A stretch of DNA of 64,000 nt. It comes from Longimicrobiales bacterium (lineage in GTDB: Bacteria > Gemmatimonadota > Gemmatimonadetes > Longimicrobiales > Gaopeijiaceae). This document shows positions 3,757 to 12,771 of this stretch, one piece after another (the stretch's first letter is position 1; every line of letters starts with the position of its first letter). Location of the stretch: positions 384,001 through 448,000 of the forward strand of contig OZ252251.1 of NCBI GenBank assembly GCA_965249725.1, given 5' to 3'. Under the pieces are notes generated by a model. That model saw only the letters and a list, made by a program, of their open reading frames with translations, made no database searches and had not been told where the DNA came from. Both the position numbers and the translations under genes were made by a program.

Positions 3757-3863
3757 GGTGGTGCCTCGTCGGTGGTGCCTCGATGGTGGTGCCTCGATGG
3801 TGGTGCCTCGATGGTGGTGCCTCGATGGTGGTGCCTCGATGGTGGTGCCTCGATGGTGGTGCC
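3757..3863 (+). repeat. Intergenic tandem repeat, 14-bp unit GGTGGTGCCTCGAT, about 7.6 copies
   Basis: One variant copy, six identical copies and a partial copy, contiguous with no spacers, between two convergent genes. Confidence 0.97.
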
Positions 3864-6817: not shown

Positions 6818-7591
6818 TTGTTAATCGACTCGGGGATCTTGAGTATCCCTGACATGTTCGCTGACTCTACCGTCCCGTTTCATCCATTGAATGAGTGGGT
6901 GGATCGCTTCCCCTGGGTGATTGCCGGTATCACCAATGCCGGTGACGCGGACGAGCCCTTCGATCTTCGCCTCTTCGGCGACGCGCCTCCACCCTCCGCG
7001 CCCGACCGCTGGAAGGCCCTTCTCGAGGCATCGGGCTTCTGGACTGTGGCCAACACTCAGCAGGTGCATGGAGCCCACGTGGCGGTACACTACGACCTTC
7101 CCCGGGGCGTGCACGTCCAGAGTGGACCTGCGGACGGGCATGTCACGTCTAGGCCGGGTGTGCTCCTGGCGGTCACGATAGCCGATTGTGTGCCCGTCTA
7201 CCTCGTCGACCCGGAGGCGCGCGTGGTCGCTCTCCTGCACGCCGGTTGGAGGGGCATAGCCGCCGGCATCATGGTGGAGGGGGTGGGCGCACTCCGGAGT
7301 CGGTTCGGCTCCCAGCCTGCCGACCTACACATGCATCTCGGACCGGCCATCTGTGGCGCGTGCTACGAGGTCGGTCCCGAAGTCTTCGTCGCCCTCGGGT
7401 TGCCGGCACCAGCGGGCCCGACCCCCGTGGACGTGCGGGCCGCTCTGGTTTCGCGGGCCCGGGCGGCCGGTGTGGCAGAAGGCCAGATCACGGTCTCGCA
7501 AGAGTGCACGCTGTGTGGAACGGCCGGCCTCTTCTCCCACAGAGGAGGCCGATCCGAACGCCAGGCAGCGTTGCTGGGGATTCGGCCGTGA
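6818..7591 (+). CDS. pgeF: PgeF/YfiH/YlmD family purine nucleoside phosphorylase (laccase-like domain)
   Basis: QQVHG, ADGHVT, TIADCVPV, HAGWRG, GPAICGACYEVG, FSHR. The start may be ATG 6854. Confidence 0.9.
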   Translation: MLIDSGILSIPDMFADSTVPFHPLNEWVDRFPWVIAGITNAGDADEPFDLRLFGDAPPPSAPDRWKALLEASGFWTVANTQQVHGAHVAVHYDLPRGVHVQSGPADGHVTSRPGVLLAVTIADCVPVYLVDPEARVVALLHAGWRGIAAGIMVEGVGALRSRFGSQPADLHMHLGPAICGACYEVGPEVFVALGLPAPAGPTPVDVRAALVSRARAAGVAEGQITVSQECTLCGTAGLFSHRGGRSERQAALLGIRP

Positions 7592-7782
7592 ATCCCGGAG
7601 TGGGCCTCTGTGAGAAGTGTGCCTTCGTTCGGGTGGTCGAGAACAATCGAGGGTCTATCTTCCATCTCTGCGAGCGATCAAGCGAGGACTCGAGCTATCG
7701 AAAGTATCCGCAGCTGCCCGTGCTGACCTGTCCGGGCTTCGAGGTTGCGAGAACAGAACCAGACGGGGAGGTGGCTGAATGA
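7588..7782 (+). CDS. Small Cys4 putative metal-binding protein (64 aa)
   Basis: The GTG start overlaps the pgeF stop (GTGA) and its stop overlaps the next ATG (ATGA). Sequence GLCEKC..FHLCERS..KYPQLPVLTCPGF. Confidence 0.75.
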   Translation: MNPGVGLCEKCAFVRVVENNRGSIFHLCERSSEDSSYRKYPQLPVLTCPGFEVARTEPDGEVAE

Positions 7783-8243
7783 GCGATCCGTTCTACATCG
7801 CGCGGGCCGACGTGGGAAGGCTGTCGGGCATCCATCGGCGTGCTCTCCTGGAGGATGGCACCCAGGTCGACTTCGGCGTTCATGGTCCGGTGAAGTCCCA
7901 CTACGGGCTGGACTCGGAGCCGAACCTGCCTCTACCCGTAGACTACATCGTGGCCGCCGCCGCTGGCTGACTACTCGGGACTCTAATAGGCGCACTGGAG
8001 GTGCGCGGGGTCAGGCTACCGAGCGACCACATCCGTTCGAGCGCCGAGGGGATCAACGAGATGCGGAATAGGATGCCACTCCTCACTGAGATCCACGTTC
8101 AGTACACCATCCAGATCCCGGAAGGCGACAGGGAGACCGTGGACAAGGCGTTGGCAAGGCACGTGGACAAGTGTCCCACGGCCCAGAGCCTGAAGGACTC
8201 GGTCGAGATCAGCTGGACGGCCGAGATCGAGGAGAGCGCATAA
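7779..8243 (+). CDS. OsmC-family protein, probable selenoprotein (UGA 7968-7970 read as Sec64), 154 aa
   Basis: ORFs 7779..7970 and 8001..8243 are in the same frame and join as PVDYIVAAAAG-U-LLGTLIGALEVRG. The second Cys is in HVDKCPTAQSL, and a hairpin follows the UGA. Confidence 0.85.
7971..8023 (+). promoter_or_regulatory. Candidate bacterial SECIS element
   Basis: Apical stem GCGCAC(7990-7995)-UGGAG loop-GUGCGC(8001-8006), with lower pairings GACUCU/GGGGUC and CUCGG/CCGAG. The loop begins 25 nt after the UGA, with G at loop position 2. Confidence 0.7.
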
Positions 8244-9954: not shown

Positions 9955-11079
9955 GGCCGCGAAAGGCAGCGCCCAGAGCACGTACCAGGGATGGATCGTG
10001 TGAGAGAGCAGCAGGCCGGTCCCCAGAATCCAGAAGAGTGCCTTCTCGGCGTCGTATGACTTCCAGGTGGTCCAGCCGATGACCGCCAGGACGATCAGCC
10101 CCGCCGCCACTCGCGGCGCACGAGGGCCCGGGATGATCCACTCGACGACCGCGAACGCGCCTTCCTGGAATCGCCAGTGCTCCGCAAAGGTAGACAGGCC
10201 ACCCCACAGCATCGTCCCAGCCGACGCATACGGCAGGTAGAAAACCACGATGGCGACACCGAAGGCCAACACTGCCCTCCATCCATACCGCCTCCACAGT
10301 GGAGGCAGTGCGGCCGCCGGGGCGAACTTGGCCAGGGTCGCGAGGCCCAGCGCGAGGCCCATGCGTATGGGATGGGTACCCAGATAGAGGAGAAGCGCGA
10401 TGAACACGAGCCCCAGCGTCTCAAGGTGACCGTTCCAGGCTGTCTCGATGAGAAGTAGCGGTGACCACAGGTAGAGAATCAACACTCCGCGCGGGTCACG
10501 GCCGGATCGGCTCGCAACCTTGCCGAGGAGCCAGCCCGTCACGAGATCCAGACCCACCCACACGATCTTGAGCCCCAGGATGGTTCCGCCGAGCAGCGCG
10601 TTGAGCAGGAAGACGATCTGGGCCAGGGGCGGGTAGATCGTGGACACCGAGGGGTTGTTGATCGATCCGTGCCAGGGCGTCCGAAGCGCTTCGAGTGCCG
10701 GGTCACCCGGCGCGTGCAGGTAGGGGTTCACTCCCTGCAGCTGGACATGTCCGTCCCAGAGGTATCGGTAGAAGTCGTCGGTGAGTTCCGGGGCGACGGG
10801 TAGCAGGGCCAGGCGCATGGCTACGGCCCATCCCCAGATGATGACGAGGTGCGTGCGGTGGGAGCCAGGCGCATTCTCGGCCTGTCGTCCGGCCGCAGAA
10901 GCCGCGAACGCGTAAACCAAGAACGCGCCCGCGACGAGTCCGAGCCCGGGGGACGGAAACCCGCGACCGGGCCACCACGCGGCAGTCGCGAGCAAGACCA
11001 ACTCGACGGCGCCCATCGCCGCGAGGAAACGGCCCCCACCCGTGAGGGGTTCCTCTTCCGCAGGCGTTAGCTTCACCAT
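9766..11079 (-). CDS. GT-C polytopic glycosyltransferase (DUF2029/GT87-like mannosyltransferase)
   Basis: TDDFYRYLWDG, NPYLHAP, TIYPPLAQ, YLWSPLLLIETAWNGHLE, IHPWY, and many TM segments. Confidence 0.85.
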   Translation of the reverse strand: MVKLTPAEEEPLTGGGRFLAAMGAVELVLLATAAWWPGRGFPSPGLGLVAGAFLVYAFAASAAGRQAENAPGSHRTHLVIIWGWAVAMRLALLPVAPELTDDFYRYLWDGHVQLQGVNPYLHAPGDPALEALRTPWHGSINNPSVSTIYPPLAQIVFLLNALLGGTILGLKIVWVGLDLVTGWLLGKVASRSGRDPRGVLILYLWSPLLLIETAWNGHLETLGLVFIALLLYLGTHPIRMGLALGLATLAKFAPAAALPPLWRRYGWRAVLAFGVAIVVFYLPYASAGTMLWGGLSTFAEHWRFQEGAFAVVEWIIPGPRAPRVAAGLIVLAVIGWTTWKSYDAEKALFWILGTGLLLSHTIHPWYVLWALPFAALRRSRGWILLSGLAFLGYWGLETYHTQGVWPQPVWARVLLWVPVFGLLAYDAFKLPGRTLEA

Positions 11080-11173
11080 CGGCGCCTCACCATCGGCGCC
11101 TCACCATCGACGCCTCACCATCGACGCTTCCTTCACCACCGACGCCTCACCATCGACGCTTCCTTCACCACCG
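11073..11173. repeat. Tandem repeat of 14/18-bp units TCACCAYCGRCGC(C|TTCCT), about 6.5 copies
   Basis: Units start at 11073, 11087, 11101, 11115, 11133, 11147 and 11165, filling the divergent intergenic region. Confidence 0.93.
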
Positions 11174-11186
11174 TTCCCTGTCTGCC

Positions 11187-11906
11187 GTGACCAAGTCCGT
11201 AGCCGTGCTGATTCCCGCCCTCGACGAGGAGGAGACCCTTCCGGGTCTTCTCGCCAATCTGCGGAGTCGATCTCTGGGTCCGGTCGTGGTGGTCGACAAC
11301 GGCTCCCGGGACCGCACTCCCGACGTCGCCGTCGAAGGAGGGGCATACCTGGTCACGGAGACCGAGCGGGGTTACGGGGCCGCGTGTCTGGCGGGGATCG
11401 AGTTCTTGCGGTCCATGCCCAGCCCGCCCGCCGTTCTGGTCTTCCTCGACGCGGATCACGACGAGGGTCCGGAGCAGATCGAGATGCTTACGCGCCCCAT
11501 CCTCGACGGCGAGGCCGATCTCACGCTCGGAGTCAGGCAGCGCGGGATCGGCAAGGTCGGCACTCTCTTTCCACATGCACGTCTCGGAAACCGCCTGATC
11601 ACTTCGATGATCCGCCTCCTCTATGGCCGGAGCTTCCGCGACCTGCCCCCATTCAGGGCCGTCGACTTCCGCAAGCTGATCGAGTTGGAAATGGACGATC
11701 GCAACTGGGGTTGGACGCTCCAGATGCAAATCCGGGCGGTTCGACATGCGTTCCGCATCCTCGAGATCGAGGTCGCCCATGGCGCTCGTTCCGCAGGGGA
11801 ATCCAAGATCTCAGGATCGGTCATGGGCACGGTGCGCGCCGGGAGCAAGATGCTCCTCACTATGGTGACGGAGCGTTTGAGGCGTCACCACCGCCGTCGC
11901 CGCTAA
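11187..11906 (+). CDS. GT2 glycosyltransferase, polyprenol-phosphate sugar synthase (DPM1-like)
   Basis: VLIPALDEE, VVVDNGSRD, RGYGAACLAG, FLDADH, GWTLQMQ, GESKISG. Confidence 0.9.
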   Translation: MTKSVAVLIPALDEEETLPGLLANLRSRSLGPVVVVDNGSRDRTPDVAVEGGAYLVTETERGYGAACLAGIEFLRSMPSPPAVLVFLDADHDEGPEQIEMLTRPILDGEADLTLGVRQRGIGKVGTLFPHARLGNRLITSMIRLLYGRSFRDLPPFRAVDFRKLIELEMDDRNWGWTLQMQIRAVRHAFRILEIEVAHGARSAGESKISGSVMGTVRAGSKMLLTMVTERLRRHHRRRR

Positions 11907-12771
11907 CGTCGCCGTTGACGTCGCCGTTGACGTCGCCGGGGACCTCGCCCCTGAGAAAGCTCTCGACGATCTCCAAGGATTCCCGGTGCAGCTCCTCGGG
12001 GGGCAAGTGGCCACAGTCTTCCAGAACCTGCAGCCTGGCGTTGGGCAGCGCCGTCAGGAGCTTCTCGCCGACGGACAGCGGGACCACCCGGTCATGGCGT
12101 CCCCAAAGGAGCAGCGTCGGGACGTCGATTTCAGGGTATCGAGCGGTCAACGTGTCGAGGTCCAGCGGGACGATGGCCAGCGCCGTCTTGATGAGCGCCG
12201 ACCGGTGGGGCGCGCTCCGGAGCGGTTCGGCGTAGCCCTCCACCTGTGCTCCGCTGATGGCCGACGGGTCGTGGACGATGGACCGGAGGACCCATCTGAT
12301 AAGGCGCCGCTTCGGTACCAGAGTGAAGACAAGCCGGGTCAGCAGACCCTGCCGTGCCAGCTTCACGAAGGGAGGCAGCCGTTGGGCATATGCGGCCCCG
12401 GACACGAGGACCAGTCTCCGGAGTCGGCCATCCTCCAACAGGCGAAGGGCCACGAGCAACGCGATCCCTCCACCCATCGAGTGTCCGAACAGGGTCAGAT
12501 CGCGGAGGTCTTTCTGGATGATGAAGCGGTAGACCAGTTCGGCGTGGTCGTACGGAGAGTAGCGATCGTCATCCGGCGCCGGCGCCGAACCGTGCCCCTT
12601 CAGGTCCACGGACCACACCTCGTGGTGCTCCGCCAGGGCCGGGACCCAGTACCGCCACGAGAAGGAGTTTCCTCCGAATCCGTGAAGGAGCACGAGGGGA
12701 CCGCCGCCCTGCCCGGAGCACTCCGCGTGGAGGGGAAGGGCGTACTCCTCCTGCGGAGGCCACCTCGTCAC
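11860..12771 (-). CDS. Alpha/beta hydrolase
   Basis: LLHGFGG, DLKGHG, GHSMGG nucleophile elbow, WGRHDRVVP, CGHLPPEE. The C-terminal tail has a GDVN repeat (12 bp, about 11894-11949). Confidence 0.92.
   Translation of the reverse strand: MTRWPPQEEYALPLHAECSGQGGGPLVLLHGFGGNSFSWRYWVPALAEHHEVWSVDLKGHGSAPAPDDDRYSPYDHAELVYRFIIQKDLRDLTLFGHSMGGGIALLVALRLLEDGRLRRLVLVSGAAYAQRLPPFVKLARQGLLTRLVFTLVPKRRLIRWVLRSIVHDPSAISGAQVEGYAEPLRSAPHRSALIKTALAIVPLDLDTLTARYPEIDVPTLLLWGRHDRVVPLSVGEKLLTALPNARLQVLEDCGHLPPEELHRESLEIVESFLRGEVPGDVNGDVNGDVSGDGGGDASNAPSP

Follow-up and report, generated by a model that had tools for sequence, protein, structure and literature searches.

A single frame interrupted by one TGA

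The window analysed here, a stretch of 64,000 nucleotides from the genome of a Longimicrobiales bacterium, contains two short open reading frames, one of 63 amino acids (7779-7970) and one of 80 (8001-8243), and these raise the question of whether they are two genes, the remains of one, or a single gene in which UGA is read as selenocysteine (Sec). The region 7779-8243 is a single frame in which the sole in-frame TGA is codon 64 (reading PVDYIVAAAAG-stop-LLGT ... HVDKCPTAQSL), and the two ORFs are the halves of one OsmC-type frame; the continuity across 7968-7970 noted in the preliminary description can be read directly from the sequence. The features of the locus are as follows.

6818-7591, plus strand: pgeF/yfiH-family gene, the first in an apparent three-gene operon (PF02578, 160 bits)
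7588-7782, plus strand: upstream gene for a 64-aa four-Cys protein that belongs to no known family
7767-7771, plus strand: GGAGG ribosome-binding site, 7 nt 5' of the ATG (read from the sequence)
7779-8243, plus strand: predicted OsmC/Ohr-fold selenoprotein gene, 154 codons, ATG to TAA
7968-7970, plus strand: in-frame TGA, codon 64, predicted Sec at the peroxidatic position (alignment to the Cys of OsmC/YhfA; TGA or TGC in homologous loci)
7990-8006, plus strand: bacterial SECIS-type hairpin, 6-bp stem and UGGAG loop (spacing, loop G and stem; pairing in homologs)
8172-8174, plus strand: Cys132 (TGT) in an H-x-x-K-C-P motif, the putative resolving Cys (aligns to OsmC Cys125)

The best explanation, to which we give a probability of about 0.9, is one intact gene for a selenoprotein of the OsmC/Ohr fold with Sec64 and Cys132.

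Codon 64 is TGA or a cysteine codon

If the TGA encodes Sec, homologues should carry either TGA or a Cys codon at the same position, with conservation on both sides. We examined codon 64 in three overlapping sets of loci: 109 loci (L133 was dropped as it gave no alignment; the locus of the window itself is counted, as are loci returned twice by separate searches), 39 further genome loci and 80 metagenome loci. The codon is TGA in 108, 36 and 77 of these, respectively; the remaining seven are all TGC, and TAA or TAG never occurs among the 228 loci examined. Both flanks are conserved. Proteins in the databases give the complementary picture. Among the best 20 full-length matches, 19 have Cys at position 64 and the other has a deletion, and Cys is found in 86 of 103 proteins that span the site (query counted). 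The closest relatives are from Longimicrobiales (Gemmatimonadota) genomes, at 88% identity, and the TGA is retained in records from Gemmatimonadota, Acidobacteriota and Eisenbacteria. In one homologue (L118, G029:C49) that has the Sec TGA, the frame breaks off after about residue 126 and the resolving Cys is separated from the rest.

It had been anticipated that automated annotation would split such a gene, and database fragments do break at codon 64: residue 63 is the last in 23 of 28 N-terminal pieces, and residue 65 the first in 114 of 140 C-terminal ones. Storage as separate proteins is also what would be seen if the UGA were a real stop and the gene had become a pair of coupled ORFs, with translation of the second starting anew at an ATG after the TGA, and codon 65 is indeed ATG in 84 of 133 distinct TGA loci. 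But codon 65 is CTA here, which is no start, and Cys homologues also have Met65, so the ATG reflects an amino-acid preference. Such a split would moreover lose the one catalytic residue, and it leaves unexplained why TAA and TAG never replace TGA. We regard it as very improbable, and treat the two-fragment entries in many Gemmatimonadota, Acidobacteriota and Eisenbacteria records as a recurring annotation error, corrected here for this locus.

More improbable still is that the gene is a pseudogene, that TGC or TGT was misread as TGA, or that UGA is reassigned across the genome. The assembly may have occasional indels, as suggested by an extra base at 7563 in the contigs of two studies and by an insertion in a C run of a paralog (see below). 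Against misreading, in the four runs compared X18 does not reach codon 64, and contigs from three other studies (X5, X6 and X11) span it and show no other letters there, where reads with TGC or TGT would have spoken against recoding, and decay or error is difficult to reconcile with retention of the TGA in three phyla of records. As for reassignment, TGA ends both upstream genes in the normal way. The preferred reading remains that UGA64 is decoded as Sec; insertion is inferred from these comparisons, and we consider it highly probable.

A conserved hairpin downstream of the TGA

The preliminary description placed a hairpin, GCGCAC-UGGAG-GUGCGC, just 3' of the TGA. The sequence bears this out in position, spacing and loop: bases 7990-7995 pair with 8001-8006, the loop (7996-8000) lies 25 nt after the UGA, and G occupies loop position 2. 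If a U-G pair closes, the stem is alternatively 7 bp with a GGA loop. The stem-loop has an energy of -9.7 kcal/mol, and in our own bSECIS-type filter it agrees with all values of the bSECIS model in the portion of PMC13188914 cited here (loop 3-9 nt, stem 4-16 bp, loop G at 1-2, spacing 16-37 nt, energy at or below -7.5 kcal/mol). Folding z-scores lie between -0.66 and -2.32 for four short stretches around it, and at +0.16 when 101 nt are folded. The same filter is passed by 240 of 3000 random TGA triplets of this 64% GC genome, so that the hairpin taken alone is weak evidence; energy alone was discarded as proof of a SECIS since suitable values are too frequent by chance.

Homologues are more informative. 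Across 122 distinct 48-nt homologue windows, 99.6% of the 732 cells that make up the six stem pairs are paired and 58 cells are changed on both sides; none of 500 shuffles was as high, and slid controls were 5-67% paired. Two-sided change affects three pairs, a number reached by 58 of the 500 shuffles. A silent site is coupled to a residue change, in the combinations GCA (Ala72) with GTG (Val75), GCG with GCG (Ala75) and GTG (Val72) with GCA (Ala75). In four neighbouring genes Ala is encoded by GCA in 37 of 428 cases; at this Ala site GCA is found in 114 of 171 TGA windows, in each case facing GTG, and in none of six Cys windows. The stem does partly follow from a conserved G-A-L-E-[AV]-R peptide written in GC-rich codons, and two of the seven Cys windows keep all six pairs. 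Nevertheless, as judged by the alignment, the hairpin exceeds chance through its homologues, though by little on its own, and compensatory changes indicate that a SECIS-type element near the UGA is conserved.

The loop points the same way. Its G is retained in 180 of 185 distinct TGA windows versus one of seven Cys windows, and in the close Cys alleles L155, L233, L240 and L299 CTG has become CTC, with loss of the loop G in all four. Synonymous constraint and retention of the loop G go with TGA and not with the Cys alleles, a further point against a UGA that is simply a stop between two genes. Five TGA loci have a UCGCC loop, and selA or tRNA-Sec is found in four of their five genomes. L026 and L032-L035 possibly carry a non-canonical SECIS.

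Selenocysteine machinery and other selenoproteins

Recoding requires the machinery to be present, and a search for selA, selB, selC and selD, proposed at the outset as a check, finds all four in this genome. The first three score over their cut-offs, the tRNA-Sec has the anticodon UCA, and selD itself has an in-frame TGA. Four further selenoprotein genes were recognised through family searches with a TGA at a Cys position. They are listed here with selD.

G000:C3:2223709, plus strand: Prx-like selenoprotein gene (UxxC)
C3:225121, minus strand: deiodinase-like selenoprotein gene
C3:141249, plus strand: DsbA-like selenoprotein gene (UxxC)
C2:162199, plus strand: formate dehydrogenase alpha (FdhA) selenoprotein gene
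C1:279375-280298, minus strand: SelD gene with in-frame TGA

In all five the hairpins are similar and the loop opens with G, that of the Prx-like gene reaching only -6.1 kcal/mol, weaker than -7.5. The genome-wide scan behind the family searches is crude: it missed the OsmC-type gene and selD, and the majority of its 47 candidates appear to be chance hits. Five candidates were checked; the fifth proved false, a stop codon in front of a gene for a phage head-tail connector. With this machinery, Sec-tRNA would almost certainly be brought to UGA64 by SelB docked on the downstream hairpin.

Among 61 related genomes, the TGA form (the gene or a paralog) is present in 28, of which 26 have selA, and 22 of the 24 genomes without selA are without any member of the subfamily. 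As kin are not independent, this co-occurrence is a pattern and not a test. The counts include G056 (TGA form and selA) and G037 (neither), both marked unpublished; the G056 locus, L119, is one row of alignment A2 and also enters the 109-locus count and the counts made together with the 80 metagenome loci. There are two exceptions. G010 has the TGA form and selB, with selA not found, and in G009 (78% complete, 620 contigs) the TGA form at L110 comes with a canonical hairpin, while selA, selB and tRNA-Sec were not found. Cys alleles also occur in Sec-using genomes, selA being present in two of the three checked.

Fold, active site and probable function

What would the read-through protein do? 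It matches Pfam OsmC (PF02566) at 52.6 bits versus a cut-off of 27.5, an AlphaFold monomer model has a mean pLDDT of 92.2, and all matches listed by Foldseek are structures of OsmC/Ohr/YhfA type; the protein is thus predicted to fold as OsmC/Ohr. The two-Cys layout of that superfamily, on which the preliminary description had drawn, is recovered by alignment: U64 falls on the first Cys of Thermus thermophilus OsmC (1UKK), on Escherichia coli OsmC Cys59 and on YhfA Cys47, and C132 on OsmC Cys125. C132 is conserved in 135 of 137 distinct locus sequences.

Other positions depart from the classical site. In Ohr the triad is Cys61, Arg19 and Glu51, Arg and Glu mutants are only residually active (XfOhr E51A has residual activity only), and OsmC/Ohr proteins are homodimers with active sites at the interface, according to the portion of PMC5962072 relied on here. 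Ten residues before the peroxidatic residue, at the position of OsmC Glu49/Ohr Glu51, the present family has Val54 (131 of 137 distinct locus sequences), and the next residue is Asp55 (136 of 137). Arg20 is found in all 133 close-family sequences that cover the position and in only 24 of 62 distant homologues. His35 and His128 are each present in 135 of the 137, and G67 and T68 each in 136; distant Cys homologues keep His35 in 44, Asp55 in 57 and His128 in 51 of 62.

We lean towards a homodimeric peroxidase, a function drawn by analogy with Ohr and OsmC and probably antioxidant. The product would be a 154-residue OsmC/Ohr-fold protein with Sec64 peroxidatic and Cys132 resolving: the Sec64 selenolate would reduce a hydroperoxide, Cys132 would then form a selenenylsulfide, and dihydrolipoyl proteins would re-reduce it, as happens with Ohr and OsmC. 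The genome has sucB-like acyltransferase genes, which score below the TIGR01347 cut-off. Arg20, His35, Asp55 and His128 would replace the Arg-Glu pair as a putative activating site. At neutral pH selenols exist mainly as selenolates, so the missing Glu may matter less. The earlier proposal of a Sec/Cys peroxidase made by recoding hence stands in its Sec part, on the machinery, the TGA/Cys exchange and the hairpin, while Val in place of the catalytic Glu known from Ohr and OsmC leaves its peroxidase part less secure.

A less favoured alternative, which we still take seriously, is that the protein is a selenoprotein but not a peroxidase, namely a YhfA-like Sec/Cys redox protein or a sulfur/selenium-transfer protein acting on another substrate through the Arg20/His35/Asp55/His128 site. 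A hydrophobic residue at -10 and an acidic one at -9 resemble E. coli YhfA (P-M-E) and not OsmC (P-E-E), and YhfA (1ML8) is Foldseek's second match. YhfA itself is described as having neither the Arg nor the Glu and no known activity in the relevant portions of PMC8945050 and PMC5962072, the latter of which, in that portion, states no role in Ohr catalysis for residues corresponding to the near-invariant His35 and His128. On the other side, the protein keeps the two redox positions typical of the peroxidase fold, the Arg20 that is invariant in the close family lies at an offset of -44, comparable to -42 for Ohr Arg19, and of the proteins with solved structures the one closest in sequence is a true OsmC (1UKK, E 1e-4).

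A separate subfamily of OsmC-like selenoproteins

The preliminary description took Sec-containing OsmC-like proteins to be known from some bacteria, and they are indeed a catalogued class, published since 2005: as far as the cited excerpts go, members with a UxxT motif are reported from the Sargasso Sea in 2005 (PMC1088965), from GOS in 2008 (PMC2398784) and in PMC13188914, OsmC-like selenoproteins are named in PMC1976440, and a representative, MCS5647933.1, is a supplement row of PMC12013277. The gene described here resembles the family of the curated model NF041052 (OsmC_like_Se) in its PF02566 fold, in Sec at the first catalytic position, in a downstream SECIS and in having Cys homologues; compared by eye, MCS5647933.1 shares a similar Y-I-V...U-L-L stretch. 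In contrast to the UxxT reported for that family in the excerpts above, the motif here is U-L-L-G-T, with the T four residues on. Since there is no UxxT and the read-through protein scores 22.6 bits against a cut-off of 95, membership of NF041052 was rejected and we place the gene in a separate subfamily. NF041052 gave no match over cut-off in 151 genomes of Gemmatimonadota, and in 301 genomes of another phylum it gave only sub-cut-off matches with a C-F-M-T motif. The GVHG loop and HxxKCP end that mark the present branch are absent from the four near-cut-off NF041052 matches that were aligned, none of them a true member. One 421-codon frame (L227/L230, G418:C36) contains two NF041052-like OsmC domains, both just below cut-off, one with C-F-M-T and the other without Cys there.

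The fold is shared with OsmC of E. coli and T. thermophilus (1UKK) and with Ohr of Xylella fastidiosa and Pseudomonas aeruginosa (TM-scores 0.61-0.79 among the listed matches), as are the redox positions; unlike these, the present protein would have Sec for the peroxidatic Cys and has Val for the catalytic Glu, at 12-22% identity in structural alignments, and it scores 21.4 bits on the OsmC subfamily model TIGR03562 (cut-off 85.8). With YhfA/COG1765 (E. coli YhfA, 1ML8) it shares both redox positions, the missing triad Glu and an acidic residue at -9, and differs by the Sec, the invariant Arg20 and two conserved His, at 19% identity.

The sequence comparisons thus point to a separate subfamily of a known kind, the OsmC-like selenoproteins, and to no new kind of system. 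Among the papers listed in our literature searches, none deals with the GVHG/HxxKCP OsmC branch and none has Gemmatimonadota selenium use as its subject. BSepDB includes Gemmatimonadota genomes, going by the portion of its paper (PMC13326102) considered here, so it may hold members; the branch may already be in that database or in Haft and Tolstoy 2025. The curated model NF041052 misses this subfamily, which would be an addition to the selenoproteins of Gemmatimonadota, one in which the SECIS covaries and natural Cys revertants occur.

Probable switches between Sec and Cys, and a paralog

An initial FastTree of 184 rows had long outgroups and an unreliable root, and for this reason cannot give the order of events. 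A tree test was made on 38 rows (10 Cys, 28 Sec) picked from the 184 after that first tree. Five changes are needed to account for the Cys forms, and the test rejects their grouping in one clade (p-AU 7e-6 on these 38 rows, with a bootstrap that is not fully settled), from which several switches between Sec and Cys are likely. As the root is undefined, the direction of the switches can be suggested solely from the position of Cys rows among Sec rows.

The genome also has a second OsmC-type gene, which shares both the TGA position and the hairpin.

G000:C3:2678660-2679019, minus strand: TGA-containing OsmC-type paralog (L219), 34% identity

In this assembly the paralog is frameshifted close to its start by one extra base in a run of C, while the copy in G002 is intact; the frameshift is either an assembly error or recent decay.

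A more speculative reading, to which we give rather less than even odds, is that the GVHG/HxxKCP branch is a second, independent and uncatalogued recruitment of Sec in the OsmC/Ohr superfamily, in which selenium plus an Arg/His/Asp/His site would have replaced Arg-Glu activation, with repeated Sec/Cys switching accompanied by loss of the loop G. Repeated switching implies that natural Sec/Cys pairs exist. If the reading is correct, such pairs could be used to learn if YhfA-like proteins act as peroxidases and if Sec offsets the missing Glu.

Neighbouring genes and other features of the window

The three genes of the apparent operon are tightly packed: the start of the four-Cys gene overlaps the pgeF stop, and its own stop overlaps the start of the OsmC-type gene (ATGA). 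Neither a promoter nor a terminator was called for the operon. The pgeF-family gene scores 124 bits on TIGR00726, below the cut-off of 141, and pgeF lies within the OsmC-type locus in 60 of 148 loci. De novo clustering of the neighbours of these loci yielded nothing usable because shadow ORFs dominate, and a search for plasmid matches at E 1e-8 returned none. sucA, present in 21 of the 148 loci, was considered as a link to lipoyl reductants and set aside as too weak, being likely synteny among kin.

The four-Cys protein has a conserved C-x2-C ... C ... C pattern and is probably a metal- or Fe-S-cluster-binding protein. It has no match in Pfam or NCBIfam; its look-alikes in the ESM Atlas (score 0.96) are unnamed clusters from Actinomycetota, Elusimicrobiota and Acidobacteriota. 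Its gene adjoins the OsmC-type gene in 63 of 148 loci. A role as a dedicated OsmC partner was rejected, because the protein occurs in 55 of the 61 related genomes, usually directly after pgeF, including all 12 of the family that are without selA, and at 13 of its own 30 loci there is no OsmC gene nearby.

Near the end of pgeF, at window position 7563, contigs of runs X6 and X11 have one extra G, while X5 agrees with the window; this is a strain variant or an assembly indel, and would alter the C-terminus of PgeF. Short tandem arrays lie at gene ends or between genes at 1725-1793 (period 18), 3757-3863 (period 14; 7.6 copies of a 14-mer with 97% match), 11073-11173 (periods 14/32) and 11895-11949 (period 12).
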